In this document: positions 4,851-46,499 of the stretch, piece after piece
Position numbering within the stretch: position 1 is the stretch's first letter
How the letters are laid out: every line of letters starts with the position of its first letter
Origin: Candidatus Iainarchaeum sp.
GTDB lineage: Archaea > Iainarchaeota > Iainarchaeia > Iainarchaeales > UBA10219
Assembly: GCA_018304425.1 (NCBI GenBank)
Contig: JAGVWE010000002.1
Location: forward strand, 224,001-288,000
DNA: 64,000 nt
Reading direction: 5' to 3'
The notes under the pieces: generated by a model
Told to the model about the DNA's origin: nothing
Seen by the model: only the letters and a program-made list of their open reading frames with translations
The model's database searches: none
Translations under genes and position numbers: made by a program

Positions 4851-5813
4851 CTATTTTTTGTATTTCATGAACTGGGCGAGCAGGGCCTCGAGTTGGATGC
4901 GCTCGCTGGCGCCCTCGACGAGGCGAAAGTTGTATTCGCCGATGACGTCCACCAACGCGATTTTTGTCTTGGAGTCGAGTTCGGCTTCGGGGAAGTCAAT
5001 GAGCTCCCGGTATAACTGGGTGATGACGTCTTCGCCGGCCATACCGTACTCGTATAAGAGGGTGTCCAGCTTCTCGCGGGCTGGCAGGAACTGGCCGGAA
5101 AGCGCGAGCCGGATGAGGTCCTTGATTTCCTCGGGCCGCGCGCGGCTCGAAACCTCGTACACGGTTTTCTCGTCAATCGCTTTTCCCATGGCAGCGGAGG
5201 CCTGCAAGACGTTGATGCTTTTCCGCATGTCGCCTTGCGCGACGTAGATGATGGCCTTCAAGGCCTTGTCATCGACTTCGACTTTCTCTTTTTTGGCGAC
5301 GTCCACCAACCGGGCCTCGATTTCCTTGGCGGCAAGCGGGCGGAAGCGGAAGACCACGCAACGAGACTGGATGGGCTCGATGATGCGGCTGGAATAATTG
5401 CAGGAGAGGATGAACCGCACGGTGCGCGTGTACTTCTCCATGGTGCGGCGCAGCGCCTGCTGGGCGTCGTCCGTGAGGGCATCGCTTTCGTCGAGGAAAA
5501 TTATCTTGAACTGCGCGTTGAAGGCCAGCGTCCTTGCGAAGTCCTTGATGGTCGAGCGCACGACGTCAATCCCGCGCTGGTCACTCGCGTTTAATTCCAA
5601 AAAGTTCTGCTCGAAGCCGGGGCCGAAGAGTTCCCGGGCCATGGCCACCGAGGCAGACGTCTTGCCCACTCCCGCGGGACCGGAAAACATCATGTTGGGC
5701 AGGTTCCGGGTCCTGACATAGGACTCCAAGCGCTTGGTGATGTCGGCCTGGCCAACGACTTCCTTGAGGGCCATCGGCCGGTATTTTTCCACCCACGGCA
5801 AACCCAGTTCCAA
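4851..5813 (-). CDS. rfcS: Replication factor C small subunit
   Basis: PWVEKYRP, Walker A GPAGVGKT, LELNASDQRGID, DESD and SRC motifs. TTG start with GAGGGG RBS. Confidence 0.95.
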   Translation of the reverse strand: MELGLPWVEKYRPMALKEVVGQADITKRLESYVRTRNLPNMMFSGPAGVGKTSASVAMARELFGPGFEQNFLELNASDQRGIDVVRSTIKDFARTLAFNAQFKIIFLDESDALTDDAQQALRRTMEKYTRTVRFILSCNYSSRIIEPIQSRCVVFRFRPLAAKEIEARLVDVAKKEKVEVDDKALKAIIYVAQGDMRKSINVLQASAAMGKAIDEKTVYEVSSRARPEEIKDLIRLALSGQFLPAREKLDTLLYEYGMAGEDVITQLYRELIDFPEAELDSKTKIALVDVIGEYNFRLVEGASERIQLEALLAQFMKYKK

Positions 5814-5878
5814 GCAAGACCCCTCGCAATAACCCTGGGAGGCAAGGAATTTAAAGCCAATGGAGCCCAATCCATGCC

Positions 5879-6313
5879 ATGAAGGGCCTCACCAACCAGC
5901 GGCTCAAAGTATGGTTCGTGTTCGCGGTGACCTATGCCGCGCTCTACGCGTTGGCGGTGGCCACCCCCCTCCGGGACTGGGAATTCAATGGCAGCCTCTT
6001 CCAAATGGATTGGCTCGCGTTCTTCCTGCCGCTGCCGGCCTTCGGCCTCATGTACCTCTTGACGGGCTGGCTCAACCAGTACTTCGGCGAAAAAACCGGT
6101 CACTCGTACTGGGTGCCCTTGCTCCTGCTCGTGCTCGGCATGCTGGCCTGGTACGTCGTGCTGTTCTGGTACTACAAGAACGTCGCCGACCTCCGGCAAG
6201 TCAAGGAAATCCAATTCGATTTCGCGGCCAAACTCCTGGACTCGCATTACCCGGAATTCCTCGTGGCGGCCTTCGGCGGATGGCTTGCACACGTGATGGT
6301 GGACCGGGAATAA
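5879..6313 (+). CDS. Hypothetical multi-pass membrane protein
   Basis: About 4 hydrophobic segments; host-like codon usage. Confidence 0.7.
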   Translation: MKGLTNQRLKVWFVFAVTYAALYALAVATPLRDWEFNGSLFQMDWLAFFLPLPAFGLMYLLTGWLNQYFGEKTGHSYWVPLLLLVLGMLAWYVVLFWYYKNVADLRQVKEIQFDFAAKLLDSHYPEFLVAAFGGWLAHVMVDRE

Positions 6314-6346
6314 GCCCTTAAATTCCTTTCCACGGGTTAATTAACT

Positions 6347-7618
6347 ATGAAAGCCTACGTCGCCACCTACGGGTGCAGCCTCAACAAGGCGGACGGCGAG
6401 CAACTGAAGGGGTTCCTGGCCGGCAAGGGCGCGAGCTTCTGCAAGCCTGGGGACGCCGACTTGCTGGTCATCAACACCTGCGCCGTCAAGCAAGTCACCG
6501 AGCAACGCATGCTCAGCCGCATCGAGCGGTTGTCCAAGTTGATGGAGAAGACGGGCAAGAAGCTGGTGGTCACGGGCTGCCTGCCCAAGGTCAGCCCCCA
6601 CAGGATAGCGGAAGCGGCGCCGGACGCCCTGCAGGTCGGACCCAGCCTCGCCGAGTTCTCCGAGAAAATGGGTTGGCCGCGCACGGAGGGCGGGCCGTTG
6701 AACCCGAAGCTCCGCGACAACCAATTCACGTCCATCATTGCACTCAACAAGGGCTGCGCCAGCCACTGCAGTTTTTGCGCGACCAAGCTTGCGCGGGGGA
6801 CTGTGGGGAGTTACGACGCCGAAGAACTGGTGCAACAGTTCCGCCACGCCGTGGCCGAGACCCCCGAAGTCTGGCTGACGAGCCCGGACACGGGAGCCTA
6901 TGGAATGGAAAAGGGGACGAACCTGCCGAAGCTCGTGCAGCGGCTGCTGGAGACGCCGGGAAAGTACCGGGTGCGCGTGGGCATGATGAACCCCCAACAC
7001 CTGCTGCGGTGGGTGGACGACTACCTGGACTTGTTCGAGGACGAGCGCCTCTACCGGTTCTTCCACGTGCCCGTGCAGGCGGGAAGCCCGCGCATGCTCG
7101 ACCTGATGCGACGCGGGTATAAAGTGGAGGACTTCCTGGAAGCGTGCGGGGCCATCCGGAAGCGGTACCCGGACGCCATGATTTCCACGGATGCCATCGT
7201 GGGTTTCCCCACCGAAACCGAGGACGAGTTCCGGGAAACCATGGACGTGGTTGAACGGGTGCAGCCGGAGATGGTGAACGTGTCCAGGTACGGGAAAAGG
7301 CCGGGCACCGTTGCGGCAAAGATGCCGGGGCAACTGACCGAGGAAGCGAAGAAAGCGCGGAGCCGGGAACTGGCCGCCGCGTGCCACCGAATCGTGGCGA
7401 AAAGGAACGCGGGACTGGTGAACCGGGAATTCGAGGTGCTGGTCACCGAGCACGGCCTGAAGGGCCGGTTCCTGGGCAGGAACCAGGACTATAAGCCGGT
7501 CATCCTCGAAGACGACTGGAGGGGAACGTTCGTGTGGGCGCGCGTGAAGCAAGCGGAAGGAGCGTACCTGGTCGGGGAAACCATGGAAAGCCTTTTATTC
7601 AACGCAAACGCGAGGTAA
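6347..7618 (+). CDS. mtaB: tRNA t6A37 methylthiotransferase (MiaB-like radical SAM, archaeal MtaB type)
   Basis: TYGCSLN and INTCAVK (UPF0004), GCASHCSFC radical SAM motif, IVGFPTETE, C-terminal TRAM region. Confidence 0.85.
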   Translation: MKAYVATYGCSLNKADGEQLKGFLAGKGASFCKPGDADLLVINTCAVKQVTEQRMLSRIERLSKLMEKTGKKLVVTGCLPKVSPHRIAEAAPDALQVGPSLAEFSEKMGWPRTEGGPLNPKLRDNQFTSIIALNKGCASHCSFCATKLARGTVGSYDAEELVQQFRHAVAETPEVWLTSPDTGAYGMEKGTNLPKLVQRLLETPGKYRVRVGMMNPQHLLRWVDDYLDLFEDERLYRFFHVPVQAGSPRMLDLMRRGYKVEDFLEACGAIRKRYPDAMISTDAIVGFPTETEDEFRETMDVVERVQPEMVNVSRYGKRPGTVAAKMPGQLTEEAKKARSRELAAACHRIVAKRNAGLVNREFEVLVTEHGLKGRFLGRNQDYKPVILEDDWRGTFVWARVKQAEGAYLVGETMESLLFNANAR

Positions 7619-12498: not shown

Positions 12499-15400
12499 TT
12501 GAAGGTCATCGTAAGCGAGAAAGCCATTGCGGGGCGGAGGATTGCCTCGATTCTCGCGGGCAGGGAAGTGCCGCAGTCCACGGAGGGAAAGGCGCCGGTC
12601 TTCTTGTTTGACAAGGACGGCGAAGAGTTCGTGGTCGTGCCCCTGCGCGGGCACATCGTGGACGTGGACTTCCCCAAGCGGTACAGTTACTGGCTTGGAA
12701 CCGACTTGAAGCAGTTGAACAACGCGGAAATCGAGTACGTGGCCACCGAGAAAGAGATTGCCGCTGCCCTCAAAAAGGTGGGCAAAAACGCGGAAGAAGC
12801 CATCATTGCCACGGACGCCGACCGCGAAGGCGAAGCCATTGGCGTCGAGGCCCTGCGGTTCATCCAGGAAGCCAACCCCAAGATACGCGTCAAAAGGGCC
12901 CTTTTCTCGGCGATTACCCCCAAGGACATCCAGGACGCGTTCGCCCAACCCGTCGAGGTGGACCACCACCTGGCGGACTCCGCGGACTCGCGCCGGGAAA
13001 TCGACTTGATTTGGGGCGCGGTCTTGACGCGGTTCATCTCCCTGGTGTCGGGGAGGCTGGGCAAGGAATTCCTCTCCGCGGGGAGGGTGCAGACGCCATC
13101 GGTTGATTATGCGGACGATTTGGTGGTCAAGTCCAGCGAAGGAAACGTCTCCATAGTGAAAATCGGTGCGTTTTGTGAGCGCTTCCTGGATAAACAGAAA
13201 CAGGAAATCGCCGGCTGCGAAGTGTACGACGTAAAATCCGAGGGCTTTGAAGCGTTTTCCTTCAATCCATTGACGTTAACGCTGGAGTTCAAGCCGTTGA
13301 CTGCCGTGGTGAGGCATCGACACGAGGAAGACTTGGTGAAAGTTGGTCTGGAGACGGGCCGTTGGACGCGAATAACCGGCACCCATTCCATTTTCGTGTT
13401 ACGGGACTCCAAGATAGAAATAGTGGTTGGCGGGGAACTACGAGAAGGAGACTTGGTACTGGCCCCGAAATGTATGCCGAGCCAGCCCGCTATTACCGAA
13501 ATAGACCTGCCGCACGCATTCAAGGCGCTCCCCCAAGAAGTGCAGGAAAAGGTCTTTATCACGGAGGCATTCATCCGAAAACGCGTGAGCCTCACGGACG
13601 CAGGCAGGAAATTCCTCAAAATGGCAAGAAAGGGGGCGGTAAGCGCTTATGGCTGCCTAAGCTCAACCATTTCCCAATGGGAAACGGGGAAAAAGAAAAG
13701 CGTGTCCTACCCGTTGCTCGCGAGGTATTTGCAAGCGCTAGGGCATGGTATGGAGTGGTTCTTGGCCAGCGAACTGGGCATGCTCGAGACACCGGTGAGG
13801 CAAGTGCTTTCGGTAGCCGAGTGGCATGCGAACGAAAGGTGCGCACACCTGGGCGAAAAGGCCAAGCTGTGCAGATACGATTATCGGTGGGCTTCTCCCC
13901 TGCATTTGCCGGTCACGAAGGAACTCATGCGCCTCATAGGGTACTACTTGGCGGAAGGGTCGCACGCGGGGCGCAACCTGAGCTTGGATTTCGGCCCGTC
14001 GGAAAATGCCTTGGCCGCGGATGCCGTGAATTGCATTGCCGCAGTATTCGGCAGAACACCAAAAATACATCGGAAACCAACTTCACTGCACATCAATTTT
14101 GGCGGGCATTTCGGGAAAACACTCTTCATGGACGTCTTAAAACTTGGGGAAAACGCGAGGCGCAAGGCACTTCCGAGCCTGGCATTCAACGTGGCAGACG
14201 AAATGAAAAAAGAACTCTTACATGGCTACTTTGAGGGAGACGGCAATTATTCCACCTCCGGGCAACTCCTGTGCCAGACGGCGTCGGAAGGCCTGGCATC
14301 CGGGCTCCTGTACTTGCTACTGCAACTGGGCATCCTTGCCACTTGCTCGCCCACCACAAACACGAGCCCCTTGCCCAACCAACCACCCGGAGGCATCAAA
14401 CCCAGGCACGGATTCAAAGTACGCGTGTCAGGAAAGCACAATCTCGAAAGGGCGCTGGAAATCGTTCCAGCACGCCACAAAGAACGAGTGCTCGCGTACC
14501 TTCAAGGTCAGACCACGCGATGCGGGTTTGACGGCATCCCCATTCACGAAACCGGACTCTCCCGGGTGTGGCCAAAGCTTTCATCAAACCACGCGCAACG
14601 GATAGGCAGCCAAGCGCTCCAAACACTTGTGGAAACAAAGGGGAACCGGCTTGCCTCCATTCAAATCCAACGATTGCAATGCCTTGCCAAAAGCGATTTG
14701 GCGTTTCTCCGGGTCAACCGCGTGGAACGCGTGAAGCCAACCACGCCATTCGTGTTCGATGTCAGCGTGGAAGACAACGAAAACTTTGTCGGCGGCCATG
14801 GAGGTGTTATACTGCACAACACCCTCGCGCTCATCGTCGACCGGGAGAAGGAACGCAAGGCGTTTAACAAGCAAAAGTTCTGGGTGTTGAACGCGGTCTT
14901 CGAAAAGGACCGGAAGCCATTCGAAGCAGAGCACAAGAGCGGGAGGTTCTGGGAGAAAGCCGAGGCCGAGAAAGCGTTCGGCGTCCGGGAAGCGAAGCAT
15001 GGAAAAGTAACCAAGGTGAGCAGCCAGAAGCGCAGCATCGCGAAACCCATTCCCTTCAACACCACGGGTTTCCTGCGCTCGGCCTCCGCCATCGGTTTCA
15101 CGGCCGGGGAGGCCATGAACTGCGCGGAAACCCTTTACCAGATGGGTTTGACTTCCTATCCCCGCACGGACAACACGGTGTACTCCAAGAACCTGGACTT
15201 GAAAGCGGTTTTGCAGGAACTCGGGAAGTGCGTGGAGCTCTCGGCCGAGGTGCAGAAAATCCTGGCCCTGGGACGGATTGACCCCTCGGCTGGCAAGGAG
15301 TCCAAGGACCATCCCCCCATCCACCCGGTGAGCGCCGCACAGAAGGGCAAGCTGGCGGAAAGGCAGTGGAAAATCTATGAACTGATTGTCAGAAGGTTCC

Positions 15401-16338
15401 TGGCCACGCTGTCCGAGGACGCGGAAACCATGAACCAGGCGGTCGACATCGACCTAGAGGGCGAGGCGTTCGTGGCCAGGGGCCAGCTCATCCTCAAGAA
15501 GGGGTGGAAGGAGTTTTACCCCTACTCGCAGTTGAACGAAGTGATTCTGCCGGAGCTGAGGGAACGAGACGTGGTGGACTTGAAGAAGCTGGACCTGCTG
15601 GAAAAGGAGACTGAACCGCCCGCGCGCTATTCGCAGGGCTCGCTCATCAAGCTCATGGAGGACAATGGCTTGGGCACGAAGGCAACCCGGCACGAAATCA
15701 TCCGGAAGCTGTACGCGCGGGCCTACATCCATGGCTTGAAGGCCCTGGAACCCAATGAGATCGCGTTCTCCGTGACGGAGGTCCTGGAAAAGTATGCGGC
15801 TGGCCTCGCCAAGCCCAAGATGACGGCCGAGCTCGAAAACGAAATGGACTTGATTGCCGCGGGCAAGAAGACGAAAAAGGAAGTGGTCGAGGATTCGCGG
15901 CGGCTGTTGCTGGCCAGCCTCGAAGAGCTCTTGAAGAACAAGGCCGACATCGGCCTGGAGTTGCGGAAGGCCCTGCAAGCAGATTCGTTGTTCGGGAAAT
16001 GCGACCGGTGCGGGCAACTCCTCCGCAAAATCAAGTCCCGCAACAACAAGTGGTTCCTGGGCTGCACGGGTTACCCCAAGTGCACGAACACCTACCCCCT
16101 GCCGCAAAACGGGAAGATCACGCCGTTGAGCGTTCCATGCCCTGACTGCGGCAAGCCGACTTTCAGGGTGCAGGGGCAGCGGTACAGGTACGAGATGTGC
16201 GTGGACCCAGCGTGCCCGTCCAAGAAGGACTGGAAGACGAAGGCCAAGAAAATGGCGGCCGATGGGGGCGGGGAAAAACCGGAAGAAGAGGTCGTGACGG
16301 AAAGCGAGAAACAGGAACTCGAAGAAGACCTCTCGTGA
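12499..16338 (+). CDS. topA: Type IA DNA topoisomerase with intein
   Basis: Toprim (SEK, ATDADREGE), GRVQTP, catalytic SYPRTD, GLGTKATR and C-terminal Zn ribbons. Confidence 0.95.
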   Translation: MKVIVSEKAIAGRRIASILAGREVPQSTEGKAPVFLFDKDGEEFVVVPLRGHIVDVDFPKRYSYWLGTDLKQLNNAEIEYVATEKEIAAALKKVGKNAEEAIIATDADREGEAIGVEALRFIQEANPKIRVKRALFSAITPKDIQDAFAQPVEVDHHLADSADSRREIDLIWGAVLTRFISLVSGRLGKEFLSAGRVQTPSVDYADDLVVKSSEGNVSIVKIGAFCERFLDKQKQEIAGCEVYDVKSEGFEAFSFNPLTLTLEFKPLTAVVRHRHEEDLVKVGLETGRWTRITGTHSIFVLRDSKIEIVVGGELREGDLVLAPKCMPSQPAITEIDLPHAFKALPQEVQEKVFITEAFIRKRVSLTDAGRKFLKMARKGAVSAYGCLSSTISQWETGKKKSVSYPLLARYLQALGHGMEWFLASELGMLETPVRQVLSVAEWHANERCAHLGEKAKLCRYDYRWASPLHLPVTKELMRLIGYYLAEGSHAGRNLSLDFGPSENALAADAVNCIAAVFGRTPKIHRKPTSLHINFGGHFGKTLFMDVLKLGENARRKALPSLAFNVADEMKKELLHGYFEGDGNYSTSGQLLCQTASEGLASGLLYLLLQLGILATCSPTTNTSPLPNQPPGGIKPRHGFKVRVSGKHNLERALEIVPARHKERVLAYLQGQTTRCGFDGIPIHETGLSRVWPKLSSNHAQRIGSQALQTLVETKGNRLASIQIQRLQCLAKSDLAFLRVNRVERVKPTTPFVFDVSVEDNENFVGGHGGVILHNTLALIVDREKERKAFNKQKFWVLNAVFEKDRKPFEAEHKSGRFWEKAEAEKAFGVREAKHGKVTKVSSQKRSIAKPIPFNTTGFLRSASAIGFTAGEAMNCAETLYQMGLTSYPRTDNTVYSKNLDLKAVLQELGKCVELSAEVQKILALGRIDPSAGKESKDHPPIHPVSAAQKGKLAERQWKIYELIVRRFLATLSEDAETMNQAVDIDLEGEAFVARGQLILKKGWKEFYPYSQLNEVILPELRERDVVDLKKLDLLEKETEPPARYSQGSLIKLMEDNGLGTKATRHEIIRKLYARAYIHGLKALEPNEIAFSVTEVLEKYAAGLAKPKMTAELENEMDLIAAGKKTKKEVVEDSRRLLLASLEELLKNKADIGLELRKALQADSLFGKCDRCGQLLRKIKSRNNKWFLGCTGYPKCTNTYPLPQNGKITPLSVPCPDCGKPTFRVQGQRYRYEMCVDPACPSKKDWKTKAKKMAADGGGEKPEEEVVTESEKQELEEDLS
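13099..14820 (+). mobile_element. Intein (574 aa) with LAGLIDADG homing endonuclease in topA
   Basis: GRVQTP|SVDY...ITGTHS (block B)...LIGYYLAEGS...LHGYFEGDG...VFDVSV...ILHN|TLAL. Removing it restores GRVQTPTLALIV. Confidence 0.92.
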
Positions 16339-19161: not shown

Positions 19162-19218
19162 CGGCCATCTCAACCTTCTTAAATTATTCTGTTTATAGTG
19201 GGAGTAGAGCGTGTTTGC

Positions 19219-22200
19219 ATGAGCGAGCCCACCAGGAAACAGATTCAGCTCATTGTCCAGGAGCCCGACCCCAGCCACGTGGGCCGGAACATCGTGACCC
19301 TGGACCGGAAGGCCAAGGAAGAGCTGGGCGTTACTTCCGGGGACATCGTGGAAATAGAGGGCTCCAAGAAGACGGCTGCCGTCATCTGGCCGGCGAGGCA
19401 GGAAGACGAGGGAAAGGGAGTCGTCCGCATGGACAACCTCATCAGGCACAACGCGGGCATCGGCTTGGGGGAAAAGGTGCTGGTGCGGAAAGGCGCCTAC
19501 CAGGAAGCCAAGAAGGTCGTGCTCGCGCCCACCCAGGAAATCCGGATCGTGGCTTCCGGGTATGACCGCATCCTCAAAAAGAACTTCATTGGGAGGCCGT
19601 TGACGAAGGGGGACAACGTGTGGATTTCGGTGTTCGGCTCGGGCTTCGTTTACAGCGTCGTGGACACGAACCCCAAGGGAGTCGTCAAGGTAACGGATTT
19701 CACGAAATTCATCCTCAAAGAGGAACCGGTCAAGGAAGCCCATGAAGGCGTGCCCAGGGTTGCCTATGAGGACATCGGCGGCCTCGAAGAACAGGTGCAG
19801 AAAGTGAGGGAAATGATTGAGTTGCCCATGCGGCACCCCGAACTGTTCCGGAGACTGGGCATTTCGCCGCCCAAGGGCGTGCTGTTGCACGGTCCTCCTG
19901 GAACCGGCAAGACCATGATGGCGAAAGCCGTGGCCAACGAGACCAACGCGCACTTCATCGCGATTAACGCGCCCGCGCTCATGTGTGTCGGTGCGGAGAC
20001 CAGGATTTTGACCAACCCGGAAGGCGAAAAGACGGCGGAATCCCTGTTTGAAGAGGGGTTGAGGCAGGGCACCCTCGTCAACGATGGCGCCCTTAAGATA
20101 GTCGAATTGAAGGAACCCCTGCACGTCTTCGGGCTGAACAAGGACCTGAAGATCCAAAAGGGAGGCATTACCCACATCACCAAGTTAAGGGCAAGGACAG
20201 TGCGGCTGAAGACGAATCTTGGAGATGAAGCAGTGGTTTCGTCCAACCAGCCCTTTGCAACGTTGGATGCGTTTGGAAACCTTGCATGGAAAACGGCGGG
20301 CGAGCTGAAAAAAGGCGATTTCGTGGCCGTGGCAAAGAACCTCCCGGAACCAAGCCCCTGTCAGTTTGAGGTATTCAAATTGTGCAAACCCACGCAACGA
20401 GTCAATGCCTGCACAAGCAACGATGGGAAACGAAAGCCCCGCAAAAAAGCCTTTTCCAAAGCGGTTTCCGCCGGCGACTACATCCAGTTGTCTGATTCCA
20501 TGAACAGAAGGAACCGCGCCTTCGTGAGAATCCCCCTGGAACCCTCGGATGAGCTGGCGCATTTGCTGGGTTTGATGTATTCTGAGGGCTATCTCTCGAA
20601 GGACGGGTTGGTTTTCACCAACCATGACCCAATCCTGAACCGGCAATTCAGCGAGTTGTGTGAAAAGGTGTTCGGGATCCTGGCCACCATAAAGAGGACG
20701 AAGGCCGTCTGCTATTCCACCACGGCCAGGCTGTTCCTGGAGAAGGTGCTGGGCTTTCCGGTCGGCAAGAAAGGGAACTACTCCCTGCCACATTGGTATT
20801 TCAAGCTCTCAAAGGCGCAAACGGCACGCTTCCTGCAGGGATTCTGGGAAGGCGATGGAACAGTTGGAAAAGCCAAGGGCGGCTATCCAACCGTCCGGTT
20901 CTACGCAAAAGGGAAGAGGATTCTTTCGGACCTGTCGGTTTTGAGCAAGCGCCTGGGCTGGGTGTGCCGCCTGACGCCCTGGAAGACGCCCCTGGGCCTG
21001 ATGCAGGCGTTGGTCCTGATGGGGACGCGTTCGCGGGAGCTGTTCGCGGAACAGATTGCTTCCCGCACGAAAAAGTTCGGGCGGCTGAGGAAATGGCAGG
21101 CAAGCCGCACCAAACAAGGGGACAATCTGGGTGTTCCGGACATCAGCCCCCTGCTCAAACGGCTCAAGAGGGAAGCAGGACTCGTGTACGGGAAAAACCT
21201 GCCGGAGGGGCCGACTGAGCGGTATATTTCCGGCCGCGACCCCTTGACCCAGCGGAAGCTCGAGGAAATAAACGCCTTGTTCGGCGGGCACCCCGCGCTC
21301 GAGCGCCTCATCAAGGCGGAAGTCGCATGGTCGAAGATAACCGCGCTCAAGGCGGAAGGGGAAAGAGACCTCTTCGATTTCACGGTGGAGCCGTTCAACA
21401 ATTTTTTGGCGGGCCACAGCCTGCTGGTCATGCACAACTCCAAGTTTGTCGGCGAAGCCGAGGAACGAATCCGGCAGGTGTTCAAGGAGGCGGACGAGAA
21501 CGCGCCCAGCATCGTCTTCTTCGACGAGATTGACGCGATTGCCCCCAAGCGGGATGAAGTGGTCGGGGAAGTCGAGCGAAGGGTGGTTGCTCAACTGCTC
21601 GCCGCCATGGACGGCATGGAGGCCCGAGGCAACGTCATCGTCATTGCGGCCACGAACCGCGTGAACTCGATTGACGAGGCCCTGCGCAGGCCAGGAAGGT
21701 TTGACCGCGAAATCGAGATAGGCGTTCCGACCAAGGAGGGAAGGCGAGAGATTTTCACGATTCATTCCAGGGGCATGCCGTTGTCCAAGGACGTTGAACT
21801 GGATTACTTTGCCTCCATCACGCACGGCTTTGTGGGCGCGGACCTGGCCGCGCTGGCCAAGGAAGCCGCCATGAAGGCCCTGAGAAGGTATTTGCCCAAG
21901 ATCAACCTGGAAGAGGAAACCATTCCAGCGGAAGTCCTGGAAACCCTTGAAGTGACCAAAAAGGACTTCATGAACGCCTTGAAGGACGTGCAGCCCAGCG
22001 CGTTGCGGGAGGTAACCGTGGAAATCCCGAACGTGCGCTGGACGCAGATCGGCGGCTTGGAGGAAACCAAGGAAGAAATCAAGCAAGCCATTGAGTGGCC
22101 GCTGAAGTACCCGGATGCATTCAAGAAGATGGGCATCAAGCCCCCGAAGGGAATCCTCCTGTACGGGCCGCCGGGATGCGGGAAGACGCTGCTGGCGAAA

Positions 22201-22857
22201 GCGGCTGCCACCGAATCGGAGGCCAACTTCATCCCCATCAAGGGCCCCGAGCTGTTCAGCAAGTGGGTGGGCGAGAGTTCGAAGGGCATCCGGAAGGTGT
22301 TCCAGCGCGCGCGGCAGGTTAGCCCCTGCATCATTTTCTTCGACGAGTTCGACTCGGTGGCGACCCGGCGGGGCCACGGGGATGATTCGGGCGTCAGCGA
22401 GCGCGTGGTCAACCAGTTGCTGACCGAACTCGACGGGGTAGTTGAGTTGAAGGACGTGGTGTTCGTGGCCGCGACGAACCGGCCGGACCTGATTGACCCG
22501 GGAGTCATGCGACCGGGGAGGATTGACAAGGTCATCAAGGTGCCCGCACCCGACGAGAAGTCGAGGCTGCAGGTGTTCAAGGTGCACACCAAGAACGTGC
22601 CGATGGCAAAGGACGTGGACTTGAACGCACTGGCGAAGCAAACGGTTGGCTATAGCGGGGCTGACCTGGAGGGAGTGATAAGGGAAGCCGCCTTGATCAG
22701 CTTGAAGGAAAGCGACATGAAGCCGGGCGTGGTTACCTGGAAGCACTTCGAACTCGCCTTGAAGAAGATTCCGCCCAGCCTGCCAGAGGAAATCACGAAG
22801 GCCTATGATGCTTTCAGGGTGCAGCAGGCGGACTTCAAGCCCAGCTACATCGAGTGA
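19219..22857 (+). CDS. cdc48: CDC48/VCP AAA+ ATPase with intein
   Basis: N-domain followed by two AAA modules ([32 protein letters not shown]). Confidence 0.95.
19984..21438 (+). mobile_element. Intein (485 aa) with LAGLIDADG homing endonuclease in cdc48 D1
   Basis: APALM|CVGAET...LLGLMYSEG...[10 protein letters not shown]...LFDFTV...VMHN|SKFVGE. Removing it restores [10 protein letters not shown]. Confidence 0.92.
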
Positions 22858-42369: not shown

Positions 42370-42376
42370 GGAGAAG

Positions 42377-42451
42377 CGGGCCCGGAGGGATTTGAACCCC
42401 CGTCCTCTCGGTCCGAAGCCGAGCGCCATATCCTGACTAGACCACGGGCCC
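42377..42451 (-). tRNA. tRNA-Arg (anticodon TCG), no intron, CCA not encoded
   Basis: GGGCCCGTGGTCTAGTCAGGATATGGCGCTCGGCTTCGGACCGAGAGGACGGGGGTTCAAATCCCTCCGGGCCCG forms a full cloverleaf with A20 and a TTCAAAT T-loop. Confidence 0.95.
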
Positions 42452-43200
42452 TAATATAATGACTCCACGTCCAAAGCCTTATCTAGGATTTGTTTACGCT
42501 GCGCATAGGTCGTATAAGGCGGACAGTGCCCATATTCGCTCCAAATGAGGAATCTACTCAGTTTAGAGGGGTTGGCAAATCCGATGTCTTTAATCCAGTG
42601 CAGTAGGTTCTCAGTCCCAGACATGAGAATACGGTGGTCGGCACCCCAATTTGTGTTTCGGCGTGGAAAAATGTATGCCTGATAGTTAAAGTTCAAAGCA
42701 CTAAGTAATTTTTGAACTCCCTCAAATAGTGGCTTGGAGATAACACTTAGGCCGAGAACGGGATAGCAGTTGTGAGTTTTCCTATATTCCGAATAGCTTT
42801 CTCCTTTTTGACGTTTGAAATGAATGAAACCGTCTGTGTCAAATAACCCCCGCAAAAAACGTTTATAGAATTCTGGGTCGTGCGAATCGAAAATGAACTT
42901 AGGAATCTCGACTATTGCTGATTTGGCGCCAAAAGGGAATCCAAGCGAATGCATGAATGAACATATTTTCTTTCCGCAAATTGAGCATCCGTACGTATTC
43001 CTGGAAGGAAAATACTTAGCGCGGATTTCTTTTTCGAAGACTCGCTGAAACAGGAGGACAATGTGTTCATCGTAATAGGGTCTTTCTTCCACGTGTCCGC
43101 TAATGTCGAGTTCGTAATGGCCGCCACGTCCACGCATATACCCATCCCCCGCATGGATGCCGCAGATTTCGGCCAAGTCCGCGCTCAACTCGAAGCCCAT
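42451..43200 (-). mobile_element. Free-standing two-motif LAGLIDADG homing endonuclease gene
   Basis: LAEICGIHAGDG and FLRGLFDTDG motifs; visibly more AT-rich than its neighbours; no intein splice motifs. Start is 43200 (about 25 nt after TTTAAG) or 43272. Confidence 0.88.
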
Positions 43201-43251
43201 GGAATTATCTGCGTTTGACCCGTTCTTAAAGGCCGGTCGAACGGGTGATTT

Positions 43252-43515
43252 CCGGTGCGAAAGAGGAGTCATAAGGACCCCTCCTTCTTCGTGCAGAGCA
43301 GGTCTGCGAAAGACAAGCCGTCCGAAAAGGGGTTTCCACGGTTGGAGACCTTTGACTCAACGTGATAAAGGTTCAAGCGAACCACCTCCGAAGACGGCTT
43401 GCGGCTTTTGGAGGCATTAAACCCTTTCCACCAACAGGCCGCGTTCGGAGGTGGAAAGGTTTAAGCCGAGAAAAGCCGAGTCGAAGGAGGTAGTGAGCGA
43501 CCTTTATCGCCAGGA
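43252..43515. ncRNA. Unidentified large structured RNA candidate
   Basis: Nested helices: 43257-66/43501-10, 43280-87/43483-90, 43314-22/43393-401, 43331-38/43343-50, 43370-74/43379-83, 43402-09/43471-78, 43417-32/43450-64. Confidence 0.5.
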
Positions 43516-43547
43516 GACCAAAATAGTTAAAGGTTTGGGGCTCCGGC

Positions 43548-44018
43548 TCACGGAGGAGTCAATCGGGCCAGGGCAACCTTGGCAGCCACTGCCACCTGCG
43601 GGTGCTCAGAATTAGATGCCCGGTCGAGAATCTGACGCATGCGGGCAAGAATACTTTCCTCAGCAGGTTTGCCCAACTGCGCCAACCCCCAGGCGGCTGT
43701 GAACTGGACCGGCAGATGGCCGTTACTCAACCCCTCGATCAACTGTTCACGACCCGCAGCGTTACCGAAATGGGCGAGGACGGCAGCAAGATGCACGCGC
43801 CTAGCAGGATCCCTTACATAACGTTTGCGTTGCAAGGCATCAAAAACTAGTTTCTCGGCCCTTTCACGACCAGCTGCGATCAAGGCAGCTGTCGCAGTTG
43901 CCCTCGTTGCTGGACTCAATTGCCCCAAATTATGGATTTCCGACATTAGTGGATGGCTCTCGTGGGGCCAAGGGGGAGCAGCGGCACCGGGTCTAGCAGG
44001 CCTGCGTTCGGGCGACAT
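43548..44018 (-). CDS. HEAT/PBS-lyase-repeat orphan protein
   Basis: Repeats RVHLAAVLAHFG, VQFTAAWGLAQLG and VAVAAKVALARL. Confidence 0.65.
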   Translation of the reverse strand: MSPERRPARPGAAAPPWPHESHPLMSEIHNLGQLSPATRATATAALIAAGRERAEKLVFDALQRKRYVRDPARRVHLAAVLAHFGNAAGREQLIEGLSNGHLPVQFTAAWGLAQLGKPAEESILARMRQILDRASNSEHPQVAVAAKVALARLTPP

Positions 44019-44060
44019 ATACTATCTGGAGTGGACGTGGAATAAATAGGTTTGCCCGGC

Positions 44061-45248
44061 TTATAAAACCTTGAGCCGCTTCCCGACCTTTTCGAAGACG
44101 GCCAGGGCTTGGTTCAAGTCCTTCTGCGTGAAGGCCGCGTTCATCTGCGTCCGGATGCGTGCCTTGTCCTTGGCCACCATGGGGAAAACGATGGGAACCC
44201 CGAAGACGCCTTCCTTGAACAACTCGCGCGAGAACTCCTGCGCGCGGTTGCTGTCGCCCAACATCACGGGAATAATTGGTGTTTGGCTCTTGCCCGTGTC
44301 AAAGCCCAGTTGCTGGAGGCCCTTGCGAAAGAACTCGGTGTTCTTCCAGAGCCGGGGCACGATTTTCTTGTCCCTCTCAAGGACTTGCAAGGCAGCCGTG
44401 CAGGCCGCGACCGTGGCAGGGGGCGCGGAACCACTCAACAGCCAGCTGCGCGACTTGTTGTACGCGTACTCGCAGACCGCTTGAGAGCCACAAGCATAGC
44501 CGCCCATGACGCCAAAGGCCTTGGAGAAGGTGCCGACTTCGACGTCGATTTTGCCGGTCAAGCCAAAGTGATGGGTTACGCCGCGGCCCTGCGGGCCGAG
44601 GACTCCGTCGCCATGCGCGTCATCCACATAGGTAATGCAATTGAATTGCTCCGCGAGCTTCACGATGCCGGGCAAGGGCGCGATGTCGCCATCCATGGAG
44701 AAAACCCCGTCCGTGACTATGAACGTGCGCTTGAAGTTCTTGGACGCGTTCTCCTTCAGGACGCGTTCCAGGTCGGCCACGTCATTGTGCTGGTAAACGG
44801 CTTTCTCGGCCTTTGACAAGCGGATGCCATCGATGATGCTGCCATGGTTGAGCTGGTCGCTGATGACCAAATCCCCTTCGGCGAGGATGGCCGGGAGCAG
44901 GCCCGCGTTGGCGGCGAACCCGGTCTGGAAGTAAATGGCTGAATTCGTGTGCTTGAATTTCGCGATTTGCCGGTCGAGCTTGATGTGCAAGTCCATGGTG
45001 CCCGCAATGGCGGGAACCGAACCCGAGCCCGCCCCATATTTCTTCACGGCTGCTACCGCGGCTGCCTTGACCTTGGGGTGGTTGCTCAAGCCCAAGTAAT
45101 TGTTGGCTGCCAAGAGGAGGACCTGCTTGCCGTCCACCCGGGCGCGGGGCTGGGAAGGGCCCTGGAGCTGCCTACGCGTCCAATAGAGGCCGGAAGCCTT
45201 CAAATCAGCCACTTGCTGGGCCAAAAAGCCTTCGAATGCCGCGTTCAT
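44061..45248 (-). CDS. kbl: Glycine C-acetyltransferase (2-amino-3-ketobutyrate CoA ligase)
   Basis: ANNYLGL, LNHGSIIDG, DGVFSMDG, DDAHG and GTFSKA; adjacent to tdh. Confidence 0.88.
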   Translation of the reverse strand: MNAAFEGFLAQQVADLKASGLYWTRRQLQGPSQPRARVDGKQVLLLAANNYLGLSNHPKVKAAAVAAVKKYGAGSGSVPAIAGTMDLHIKLDRQIAKFKHTNSAIYFQTGFAANAGLLPAILAEGDLVISDQLNHGSIIDGIRLSKAEKAVYQHNDVADLERVLKENASKNFKRTFIVTDGVFSMDGDIAPLPGIVKLAEQFNCITYVDDAHGDGVLGPQGRGVTHHFGLTGKIDVEVGTFSKAFGVMGGYACGSQAVCEYAYNKSRSWLLSGSAPPATVAACTAALQVLERDKKIVPRLWKNTEFFRKGLQQLGFDTGKSQTPIIPVMLGDSNRAQEFSRELFKEGVFGVPIVFPMVAKDKARIRTQMNAAFTQKDLNQALAVFEKVGKRLKVL

Positions 45249-45264
45249 CGAACCCCTCCCGGTC

Positions 45265-46302
45265 TCACTTGCCGTCCACGTGCATGATGATTTTGCCGGA
45301 GTTGCCGGAATTCATCAAGTCAAAGCCCTTCCGCCAGTCGCTGAACTGGATGCGGTGGGTGATGATGTTGGAAACATCGAGTGCCCCTCCCTTGATGAGG
45401 CCCGCCATCTTGTACCAGGTCTCGTACATGCGTCTCCCGGTGATGCCCAAAACCGTTGCCCCCTTGAAGATGATGTCGTTGGGCAGGTCCAGGGCAACCG
45501 GCTCCGAGGGCAAGCCGAACAAGGAGATTCTGCCAGCATCCCGCAGGGCCTTGAAAGCGGATTTGACGGCCGACGGGTTGCCGGAGTTTTCCAACACGAC
45601 TTCGGCGCCCAAGCCATTGGTCTGGTCCTTGATTTCCTTGGCCACGTCGGTTTCCTTTGGGTTGAAGACGTGCTTGGCCCCGATTTTCTTGGCGAGCTTC
45701 AAGCGGTAATCGGAGACGTCGCTGGCAAAGATTTCGGCGGCGCCGGCGGCTTTCGCGACTGCGATGGCCATCAAGCCTGCGGGCCCGCAGCCGAACACGG
45801 CCACGGTTTTCCCCGCGACCTCGGTTTGGAGGGTGGTGTGCACCGCGTTGCCGAGGGGCTCCATGATGCAACCGGCTTCCCAGGAAATGTGTTTGCCGTG
45901 CTTCCAGACGCAGATGTCCGGGACGCTCACGTATTCGGCGAAGCCCCCGTTGGTGTCAACGCCCAAGATTTTCACGTTGCTGCAGACGTGCGCGTTGCCG
46001 GTGCGGCATTGGTAGCAGGCCTTGCAGATGATGTGGCTTTCCGCGGAGACGTGGTCGCCTTCCCGGATGTAAACGACTTCTTCGCCGACTTTCTCGACCA
46101 CGCCCGTGAACTCGTGGCCCATGATGAGGGGTGGCTTGATACGGTTCTGGCTCCACTTGTCCCAGTTGAAGATGTGCAGGTCGGTGCCGCAAATCGAGGC
46201 ATACTTGACTTTGATGAGGACGTCTCTCGGCCCCACGGCCGGCATGTCCACCCGACGCAGGTCGAAGCCGGGAGAGGCATTGGGTTTGACGATTGCTTGC
46301 AT
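45265..46302 (-). CDS. tdh: L-threonine 3-dehydrogenase
   Basis: ICGTDLHI, GHEF, Zn Cys cluster, EPLGNAVHT and GITGRRMYETW. Confidence 0.92.
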   Translation of the reverse strand: MQAIVKPNASPGFDLRRVDMPAVGPRDVLIKVKYASICGTDLHIFNWDKWSQNRIKPPLIMGHEFTGVVEKVGEEVVYIREGDHVSAESHIICKACYQCRTGNAHVCSNVKILGVDTNGGFAEYVSVPDICVWKHGKHISWEAGCIMEPLGNAVHTTLQTEVAGKTVAVFGCGPAGLMAIAVAKAAGAAEIFASDVSDYRLKLAKKIGAKHVFNPKETDVAKEIKDQTNGLGAEVVLENSGNPSAVKSAFKALRDAGRISLFGLPSEPVALDLPNDIIFKGATVLGITGRRMYETWYKMAGLIKGGALDVSNIITHRIQFSDWRKGFDLMNSGNSGKIIMHVDGK

Positions 46303-46499
46303 CTTGTGAATGAAGGATCCCTCCAAAAGGAAAACGAAAAAAAAGTGGTGGTTCTGACTAATCTCGGAGGGCTAAGCTTAAAAACGAAACGGCGGTTGCC
46401 TGAATTAATTCTGTCAATTGACGTGAAAACGAGTGAGTGTGGTTTTTTAAAGCTAATCCTGGAAGAAATAGGTATTTCCTGTTTTTTGGAGGAACGCGA

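Follow-up and report, generated by a model that had tools for sequence, protein, structure and literature searches.

A conserved long hairpin upstream of a LAGLIDADG endonuclease-like gene and tRNA-Arg(UCG) in DPANN archaea: a candidate translational leader

The endonuclease-tRNA locus

The DNA analyzed here is a 64,000-nt stretch (the window) of contig JAGVWE010000002.1 from Candidatus Iainarchaeum sp. (assembly GCA_018304425.1, contig positions 224,001 to 288,000), of archaeal source and with about 58% G+C. Its minus strand carries an open reading frame (ORF) for a LAGLIDADG endonuclease-like protein (42451-43272) followed directly by tRNA-Arg(TCG) (42376-42451), and upstream of this unit lies a long imperfect hairpin (43380-43500) which, placed by a preliminary description within a structured RNA, proved to be conserved and recurs upstream of LAGLIDADG genes in relatives. 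We propose that the hairpin may belong to a 5′ leader that restrains translation of the endonuclease gene.

The LAGLIDADG ORF, taken from the ORF list of the window, matched Pfam PF14528 with E = 1.3e-08 and contains two LAGLIDADG motifs. Its long form comprises 273 amino acids from ATG 43272 and its conserved core 249 amino acids from ATG 43200, the N-terminal extension of the long form being weakly conserved. The 256 homologues found share ~45% identity, and those with names are nearly all from DPANN lineages (Diapherotrites/Iainarchaeota, Woese-, Pace- and Nanoarchaeota), with one row (P0024) labelled Paceibacterota bacterium. The Asp residues of both motifs were invariant in an alignment of 30 sequences, and the closest solved structures were LAGLIDADG endonucleases of inteins and introns. 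The tRNA gene, predicted by ARAGORN and scoring 59.6 bits against the Rfam tRNA model, abuts the end of this ORF, the stop codon touching the first base of the tRNA (unit 42376-43272). In 15 of 20 loci scanned, a tRNA likewise stood directly after the LAGLIDADG gene on the same strand (at about 6000-6950 of the loci); 10 of these were Arg-TCG, one was Glu, and four of 85-92 nt, which received no type call, are probably intron-containing. On this comparative sequence evidence, a conserved endonuclease-tRNA-Arg(UCG) unit spans metagenome-assembled genomes labelled Iain-, Woese-, Pace- and Nanoarchaeota.

A single conserved hairpin within the structured interval

The preliminary description had placed a non-coding element of 260-300 nt with several helices at 43215-43520. 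The helices listed there are perfect complements, namely CAAGCCGTC (43314-22) with GACGGCTTG (43393-401), CCTCCTTC (43280-87) with GAAGGAGG (43483-90), CGGCTTTT (43402-09) with AAAAGCCG (43471-78), and CCTTTCCACC (43423-32) with GGTGGAAAGG (43450-59), the last accompanied by TTAAACC (43417-23) with GGTTTAA (43458-64); the outer helix GCGAAAGAGG/CCTTTATCGC, by eye, has one A-A mismatch and is absent from the list of perfect stems. The alternative 11-bp pairing of CCACCTCCGAA (43382-92) with TTCGGAGGTGG (43444-54) was present exactly as described. Such complementarity exceeded chance, since 43215-43520 contained 7 perfect stems of ≥8 bp against 0.80 ± 0.86 expected (0 of 300 dinucleotide shuffles reached 7) and 4 of ≥9 bp against 0.18 in shuffles.

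Folding of the 351-nt region gave z-scores of -5.83 (plus strand) and -4.57 (minus strand), and 43377-43510 gave -4.97 (plus) and -4.94 (minus); positions 43250-43376 folded no better than shuffles (z = -0.65 and -0.71). The multi-helix architecture therefore did not hold: there is a single hairpin at about 43380-43500, and the 5′ 120 nt of the interval are unstructured beyond chance. The helices with support from relatives were only CGGCTTTT/AAAAGCCG, TTAAACC...CCACC/GGTGG...GGTTTAA and the basal CCACCTCC/GGAGGT, whose nucleotides the preliminary description had assigned to other pairings. The two long-range helices, 43280-87/43483-90 and 43314-22/43393-401, had no G+C-rich counterpart in 7 relatives, are specific to the window and compete with the conserved pairings; they were accordingly rejected as a conserved alternative fold.

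The hairpin itself was delineated by minimum free energy (MFE) folding, by z-scores of about -5 on both strands, by a covariance model (CM R1, built from 8 sequences) and by covariation. Its MFE was -59.4 kcal/mol in the plus sense and -53.1 to -57.4 kcal/mol in the minus sense. In plus-strand coordinates, its lower part consists of a basal helix (43382-89/43486-94) followed by 43395-99/43479-83 and 43402-09/43471-78. The middle holds a 3x3 internal loop (GGA 43410-12/GAG 43468-70), a GGC/GCC helix (43413-15/43465-67) and a bulged A (43416), and the top is formed by 43417-21/43460-64, a bulged C (43422), 43423-32/43450-59 and a variable terminal loop (43433-49). The consensus of the copies reads, from the base, as CACCUCC/GGAGGUG, an A/U helix that the window lacks, a short helix bulged on its 5′ side, CGGCUUUU/AAAAGCCG, the 3x3 loop GGA/GAG, GGC/GCC, the bulged A, UUAAA/UUUAA, a bulged pyrimidine, CCUUUGC/GCAAAGG and the variable loop. 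Across copies the hairpin measures about 125-170 nt, with arms of 55-75 nt and a loop between them of ~8 to ~40 nt, and its conserved part is unbranched. Both arms carry an invariant TTTAA(G/T), each preceded by AAAGG.

Covariation among the homologues, for which the preliminary description had called, was then assessed in the 8-sequence alignment. The results showed that 94.0% of the paired cells could pair, compared to 31.8-62.5% when the partners were slid by 1-3 columns, and that 15 of 38 pairs had changed on both sides, compared to 2-6 when slid; 0 of 500 shuffles reached any of these measures, which are to be read as coming from n = 8 sequences only and from an alignment fitted to the covariance model. 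One helix showed four different compensatory pair types. The basal helix fell outside the tested structure because its columns were misaligned. Together, these comparisons of sequence indicate that only ~43380-43500 of the 43215-43520 interval is conserved RNA structure, in the form of one long imperfect hairpin.

A palindrome may also be conserved as DNA, i.e., as a protein-binding site, as back-to-back promoter elements of a divergent promoter region, or as a target of the endonuclease. The hairpin stands between divergently oriented genes in 7/7 relatives, TTTAA(G/T) after AAAGG is invariant in both arms, the strand tests described below are symmetric, and a palindromic binding site of a dimeric protein can covary in a way that looks like RNA pairing. 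Against this stand the 55-75 nt arms with conserved asymmetric bulges, the spacing between the arms, which varies from ~8 to ~40 nt, and the four compensatory pair types in one helix. Given these long bulged arms, the variable loop and the compensatory pairs, an RNA hairpin fits better than an operator of fixed spacing, and we consider conservation at the DNA level very unlikely.

Distribution of the hairpin

Relatives were drawn from a scan of genome contigs with the LAGLIDADG alignment, from which the best 80 of the 506 confirmed matches were taken, giving 79 loci. Searches by nhmmer and blastn with 43200-43550 matched 6-8 loci; each match lay immediately upstream of the LAGLIDADG gene, on the opposite strand. 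CM R1 matched L004, L013, L027, L031, L033, L037 and L052 at E ≤ 8e-21 and the window with 100.6 bits (E = 2.4e-17), with no match elsewhere in the 846 kb searched; single-sequence nhmmer and blastn, profile nhmmer and CM R1 together yielded 7 loci. A relaxed motif scan of the 846 kb returned 9 matches, all of them this hairpin, and added a divergent copy in L044, which brings the total to 8/79 LAGLIDADG loci (7 by CM R1 plus L044). No second copy was found in the 64-kb window. The L044 copy (5790-5870) is a divergent hairpin apex (UUAAAC...GGUUUAAG, then UUGAGAG) upstream of a distant LAGLIDADG paralogue of 34% identity.

On a quick tree of 77 LAGLIDADG proteins, 7 of 9 hairpin-bearing rows fell, patchily, in one starred clade of 16 rows of Iainarchaeota type, with the window and L044 outside it. 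The hairpin label was not clustered on this tree (8 changes vs 8.6 in shuffles, 169 of 500 being as low). By eye, L007, the sister of L013, has at ~5800-5900 a decayed remnant of the small ORF described below, with an in-frame stop and no hairpin, which suggests repeated secondary loss of the module. Given the patchy distribution, the hairpin appears to be an accessory of the locus rather than the partner of every LAGLIDADG gene. A blastn search of phage and plasmid collections with 43250-43530 gave no match, and abstracts on LAGLIDADG proteins with DPANN and on DPANN structured RNAs contained no description of the hairpin.

The preliminary description had also considered a ribozyme or a very divergent housekeeping RNA, to which a degenerate LAGLIDADG-associated intron may be added. 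The likeness to RNase P RNA, signal recognition particle (SRP) RNA or group I/II introns is limited to the approximate size and the strong folding of the whole interval, and tRNA-related genes do lie in the neighborhood. Against this, no covariance model of such families matched at E ≤ 10, even with short inputs and lax filters; the conserved part is one unbranched hairpin; it occurs in 8/79 related loci, patchily within one clade; and the other strand is protein-coding over half of the interval. Rfam was searched with gathering-score cut-offs over the whole window and with E ≤ 10 for 42900-43900, 43370-43515 and L013; the tRNA apart, these searches returned only microRNA-type hairpin noise that scored far below the gathering cut-offs, so that the absence of a known family, as first described, was upheld. 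Archaeal RNase P RNA (A, M and T types) was rejected for want of any Rfam match over the window or at E ≤ 10 on 42900-43900 or 43370-43515, and SRP RNA for the same want of a match and for the single-hairpin structure. A housekeeping RNA present once per genome does not agree with a hairpin in 8/79 syntenic loci. A group I or bulge-helix-bulge intron was rejected because no Rfam intron family matched and because the LAGLIDADG gene stands by itself, flanked by the putative leader and an intact tRNA; by eye, the 3x3 loop is symmetric and does not consist of two 3-nt bulges 4 bp apart. K-turn and C/D-box readings were likewise rejected by eye. This class of explanation is contradicted already, and we regard it as extremely improbable.

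A small upstream ORF overlapping the start of the endonuclease gene

Read on the minus strand, the base of the hairpin coincides with a ribosome-binding site. The Shine-Dalgarno (SD) sequence GGAGGTGG (43382-43389, minus strand) forms the 3′ arm of the basal helix and stands 5 nt before the TTG (43376) of a small ORF of 35 codons (43269-43376, minus strand), whose stop TGA (43271-69) overlaps ATG 43272 of the LAGLIDADG long form as ATGA. Since this SD (43389-82) pairs with 43486-94, it is base-paired in a stable minus-strand hairpin, as expected of a leader that sequesters a ribosome-binding site. The same plan recurs in the relatives, where the minus-sense 3′ arm of the basal helix reads GGAGG(T/C)G and lies 5-7 nt before a start codon in 7/7. 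Of the 7 relatives matched by CM R1, 6 have at this place the ATG of a conserved acidic ORF of 36-49 amino acids (L013 5762-5902, L027 5790-5933, L033 5772-5918, L037 3619-3753, L031 5750-5887 and L052 3512-3619), and the changes from one locus to another follow a pattern of synonymous and conservative substitution. Both the window and 6/7 relatives have an ATG in frame with the LAGLIDADG core that overlaps or adjoins the small-ORF stop (-11 to +2 nt), the frame of the long form being open in 6/7 relatives.

The 36-49 amino acid family has the consensus M.F...P..EEI..VK..A..NP.DLDSRELWVLE and 94 database homologues, and three of its members lie on one 985-kb contig, that of L033, where P0168 and P0171 are the two further copies. 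In at least 9 database entries, an N-terminal extension corresponds to the translated hairpin arm, which implies that the module of hairpin and ORF exists on further contigs. The small proteins gave best E values of 0.18 and 0.14 against Pfam and NCBIfam, far below the curated cut-offs, and no usable match in the ESM Atlas. The AlphaFold model of a 49-amino-acid relative is a two-helix hairpin with a mean pLDDT of 74.5. The products are acidic and hydrophilic rather than hydrophobic and membrane-active, and a type I toxin-antitoxin system was therefore rejected.

The remaining locus, L004, has at the same position a small ORF of another type, of 45 amino acids, which has its N-terminus alone in common with the family. 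The ATG overlapping its stop opens a hydrophobic ORF of 25 amino acids (5775-5852) and not the LAGLIDADG frame; the LAGLIDADG long form begins there ~200 nt further on, at a CACCGG motif. The small ORF of the window resembles that of L004 alone, PFSDG[IL] and KE.S being common to both, and a database search with this PFSDG type found no homologue beyond the record of L004 itself. Its lack of further homologues suggests that its product may matter less than its translation.

The CACCGG motif lies in the window at 43252-43257 (CCGGTG on the plus strand). It appears in alignment A2 and in the upstream sequence both of loci that have the hairpin and of loci that lack it, and CACCGG(C/A)A stands near the start of the LAGLIDADG long form also in L003, L006, L009, L013, L031, L033, L037 and L052. 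By eye, it occurs in three different reading frames, so its conservation looks to be at the nucleotide level.

These frames also bear on the extent of the non-coding interval. Positions 43215-43376 lie within minus-strand reading frames, and the interval as a whole, which had been taken as non-coding, is not; the likely true start of the LAGLIDADG gene is ATG 43272, the small ORF having probably been missed in annotation and the non-coding interval being correspondingly smaller. RNAfold of the junction predicted a local 12-bp hairpin (43259-43287, minus strand) of -21.0 kcal/mol that buries GGAGGGG, with ATG 43272 at its loop and 3′ stem, just as had been remarked in the preliminary description. 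That remark fits the evidence better than its headline proposal of a nuclease-associated RNA, ribozyme or divergent housekeeping RNA; the arrangement of the genes speaks for a translational leader on the minus strand.

A putative minus-strand leader

The strong folding of such a palindrome cannot assign a strand, the hairpin being nearly symmetric. We favor the minus strand because the ORF that would be coupled to the endonuclease gene has its ribosome-binding site at the base of the hairpin. A candidate leader promoter is the TATA-like TAGTTAAAGG at 43525-43533; 7/8 elements have a TATA-like hexamer upstream of the anti-SD, at a distance of 29-48 nt from the base of the hairpin. In relatives the same TATA-like box also stands upstream of a divergent zinc-finger gene, and in the window the box is kept although that gene is 3 kb away with a box of its own. 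Of the two boxes that had been described on either side of the element, this one is thus real, and the other, CTTAAAGG at 43225-32, falls inside coding sequence, in the N-terminal extension of the LAGLIDADG frame, where TTTAAR corresponds to a recurring Phe-Lys. A further invariant TTTAAT lies in the 3′ arm of the hairpin and precedes the SD by 26 nt in the window and by 44-52 nt in relatives.

We think it probable, if by a modest measure, that the hairpin is a minus-strand 5′ leader hiding the ribosome site of the small ORF, to whose translation that of the endonuclease would be coupled. We infer from the arrangement of the sequence elements that the minus strand would be functional, that the 5′ end of the leader would lie upstream of the hairpin, and that the hairpin would repress translation. 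The unit would then run, on the minus strand, from the TATA-like box (43533-25) through the leader with the hairpin (43500-43380), the SD (43389-82) and the small ORF (43376-43269) to ATG 43272 over the small-ORF stop, the LAGLIDADG endonuclease-like gene and tRNA-Arg(UCG). The anti-SD at the 5′ end of the leader would pair with the SD. In the window the pairing could reach into the small ORF as far as its first codons: a window-specific 9-bp extension of the hairpin base, a perfect stem present in the MFE structure of the full region, pairs GATAAAGGT (43364-43372, minus strand) with ACCTTTATC (43500-43508, minus strand), the latter near the expected 5′ end of the leader, and covers codons 2-4 of the small ORF. 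With the SD, and in the window also the first codons, held in the hairpin, ribosomes would rarely load. The SD-like GGAGGGG of the endonuclease start would itself be buried in the local hairpin, so that this start would be reached mainly by ribosomes finishing the small ORF, i.e., by translational coupling. A DNA endonuclease that could do harm would, as a result, be made in small amounts or under certain conditions only. The hairpin might be opened by a protein at the conserved GGA/GAG loop, by temperature, or through a second promoter at the TTTAAT of the 3′ arm, from which transcripts would lack the anti-SD arm and would be unrepressed.

The opposite strand and other roles of the hairpin

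Several observations weigh against such a leader. The plus-sense MFE is lower in 7/8 elements, and the G-U pairs number 21 in the plus sense vs 13 in the minus sense; by eye, G-U pairs on the plus strand in the basal helices of L027 and L033 become A-C mismatches on the minus strand. On the plus strand, the unpaired nucleotides that are conserved are rich in purines (GGA, GAG and the bulged A), as is more typical of a functional strand. We infer the minus strand as the transcribed one from gene architecture only. The small ORF of the window starts with TTG, is without the C-terminal motif of the family and has no database homologue beyond that of L004. The hairpin is present in just 8/79 LAGLIDADG loci, of which 79 five have <400 nt of upstream sequence and hence cannot be judged, and the L044 copy is without a small ORF and without SD-like arms.

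Much of this would suit a functional transcript of the plus strand, in the window an RNA of ~130-270 nt that could regulate the mRNA for the small ORF and endonuclease as a cis-antisense RNA, or could bind a protein. Such an RNA would be fully complementary to the leader, the SD and the beginning of the small ORF; transcription may occur on both strands. Besides the lower MFE, the G-U count and the basal-helix G-U pairs of L027 and L033, which by eye exist in the plus sense alone, it would account for the purine-rich conserved internal loop and bulges and the recurring GCGA-type loop sequences, and the TATA-like CTTAAAGG (43225-32) lies ~25-30 nt before a possible start at 43256-58. The composition-controlled z-scores, in contrast, gave no advantage to the plus strand, being better on plus in 3/8 and on minus in 5/8 elements, and in the basal helix of the window the situation is, by eye, the reverse of that in L027 and L033, G-U vs A-C favoring the minus sense. 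The 43225 box is within coding sequence; in relatives, a plus-strand start would fall inside or beyond the protein-coding small ORF; no conserved promoter or terminator was found, the terminator scan returning 0 and T-runs following the hairpin in some loci only; and the 5′ 120 nt of such an RNA in the window are not structured beyond chance. A plus-strand RNA is on this balance doubtful, yet it deserves serious attention.

A more specific version of a plus-strand role sees in the hairpin an imitation of the ribosomal L1 stalk, an operator or decoy to which ribosomal protein L1 would bind through the series of stem, GGA, GGC/GCC helix, GAG(A) and stem. GGAGGC (43410-15) ... GCCGAGAAA (43465-73) has the layout of E. 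coli 23S helices 76-78 (GGUGG-GA-GGC ... GCC-junction-CCACC, from the structure line of the Rfam LSU model) and of the E. coli rplK leader (GGG-GA-GCC ... GGC-junction-CCC), and GAGA(A) is present in 9/9 copies. The archaeal L1 mRNA operator presumably contains nearly the same two words. The resemblance to L1 sites (23S helices 76-78 and the L1/L11 operators) thus covers a stem, a G(G)A junction, a 3-bp G-C helix with a hairpin cap, a purine-rich 3′ junction and a stem. It departs from them in that it needs the plus strand and stands outside an L1/L11 operon: the 64 window ORFs scanned with Pfam included no L1 or L11 gene, and there is no plus-strand gene downstream in the window. In addition, L031 and L044 (2/9 copies) are without the G-C helix, rRNA has a different and longer 3′ junction, and the SD/anti-SD theme of the hairpin is a further source of GGAGG words. 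A search for L1 patterns with shorter gaps found no match in the window or the fetched loci, the fetched loci contained no 23S rRNA gene, and a text search of the literature for the motif turned up nothing relevant. The silence of Rfam on an L1 site is uninformative because no Rfam model matches the E. coli rplK leader at E ≤ 1. We give binding of L1 in this manner very little probability.

Somewhat broader is the idea that the hairpin is a sensor RNA, whose invariant GGA/GAG loop and bulges would bind L1, the small acidic protein, the LAGLIDADG enzyme or another ligand, or else a stand-alone plus-strand partner RNA of the nuclease. We regard this as unlikely. If true, the sensor reading would tie a domesticated endonuclease, co-transcribed with tRNA-Arg(UCG) across DPANN, to the state of the translation apparatus, and a sensor RNA or plus-strand partner RNA would be a new class of archaeal riboregulator.

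Neighboring genes

In relatives, the hairpin adjoins the divergent zinc-finger gene of HVO_2753 type and genes for aEF-1beta and a Rad50-like ATPase (L052 2793-3247, L033 5047-5500, L027 5080-5511). The window differs by three inserted minus-strand genes at 43548-46326, encoding a HEAT-repeat protein, a class I/II aminotransferase-family (kbl-like) protein and a tdh-like protein. The HEAT-repeat ORF (43548-44018, minus strand; Pfam PF13646), which by synteny bounds the hairpin element, together with kbl and tdh (44061-46326), separates the hairpin of the window from the zinc-finger, aEF-1beta and Rad50-like genes. The zinc-finger gene is at ~46501 with its own TATA-like box at ~46443-53, now 3 kb from the hairpin. 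Genes for an archaeal CCA-adding enzyme, a PIN protein and LigT are also near the locus. Elsewhere in the window, inteins with a LAGLIDADG domain (Pfam Intein_splicing and LAGLIDADG_3) were found in a topoisomerase gene (12499-16335) and in a gene for a CDC48-type AAA ATPase (19198-22854); with these two beside the free-standing gene, the genome holds several LAGLIDADG elements.

Comparison with known systems

To our knowledge, conserved cis-regulatory RNA structures with support from covariation are rare in archaea, and abstracts of the DPANN literature yielded no described example. The candidate motif offers a testable mechanism, namely sequestration of an SD together with a coupled upstream ORF. 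Overlapping stop and start codons (ATGA) couple translation in many prokaryotic operons and in type II toxin-antitoxin pairs, and the small ORF, whose stop overlaps the nuclease ATG in the window and in 6/7 relatives, is arranged in the same way. A small acidic protein, predicted to form two helices, ahead of a nuclease in the relatives further recalls antitoxin-toxin pairs. Unlike in type II systems, the small protein matches no Pfam or NCBIfam family at a meaningful E value and the version in the window is without the conserved C-terminal motif.

The closest parallel lies in the T-even phages, whose genes for the homing endonucleases I-TevI, I-TevII, I-TevIII, segB and mobE have their ribosome-binding sites enclosed in stable hairpins, and in which transcripts from proximal promoters are without the inhibitory arm (PMC2988022, section 12). 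As in those systems, a stable hairpin containing the SD stands directly upstream of a homing-endonuclease-type gene, and the invariant TTTAAT in the archaeal 3′ arm could play the role of the proximal promoter of the phages. The archaeal case differs in its host and in the endonuclease, which is of LAGLIDADG rather than GIY-YIG or HNH type. Its hairpin is long (110-160 nt) with conserved loops, unlike the short stems of the phages. There is no sequence relationship, and the archaeal hairpin would gate a small ORF coupled to the endonuclease instead of the endonuclease start: it lies upstream of the endonuclease gene, on the strand that we favor, and the dependence would run through the coupled ORF (ATGA). 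The motif suggests that a homing-endonuclease-type gene fixed beside tRNA-Arg(UCG) in many DPANN genomes is under tight translational control like that of the phage homing endonucleases. The RNA motif, its size and its setting in DPANN archaea are new; its kind, a leader hairpin over an SD with a coupled upstream ORF in the control of a homing endonuclease, is known.

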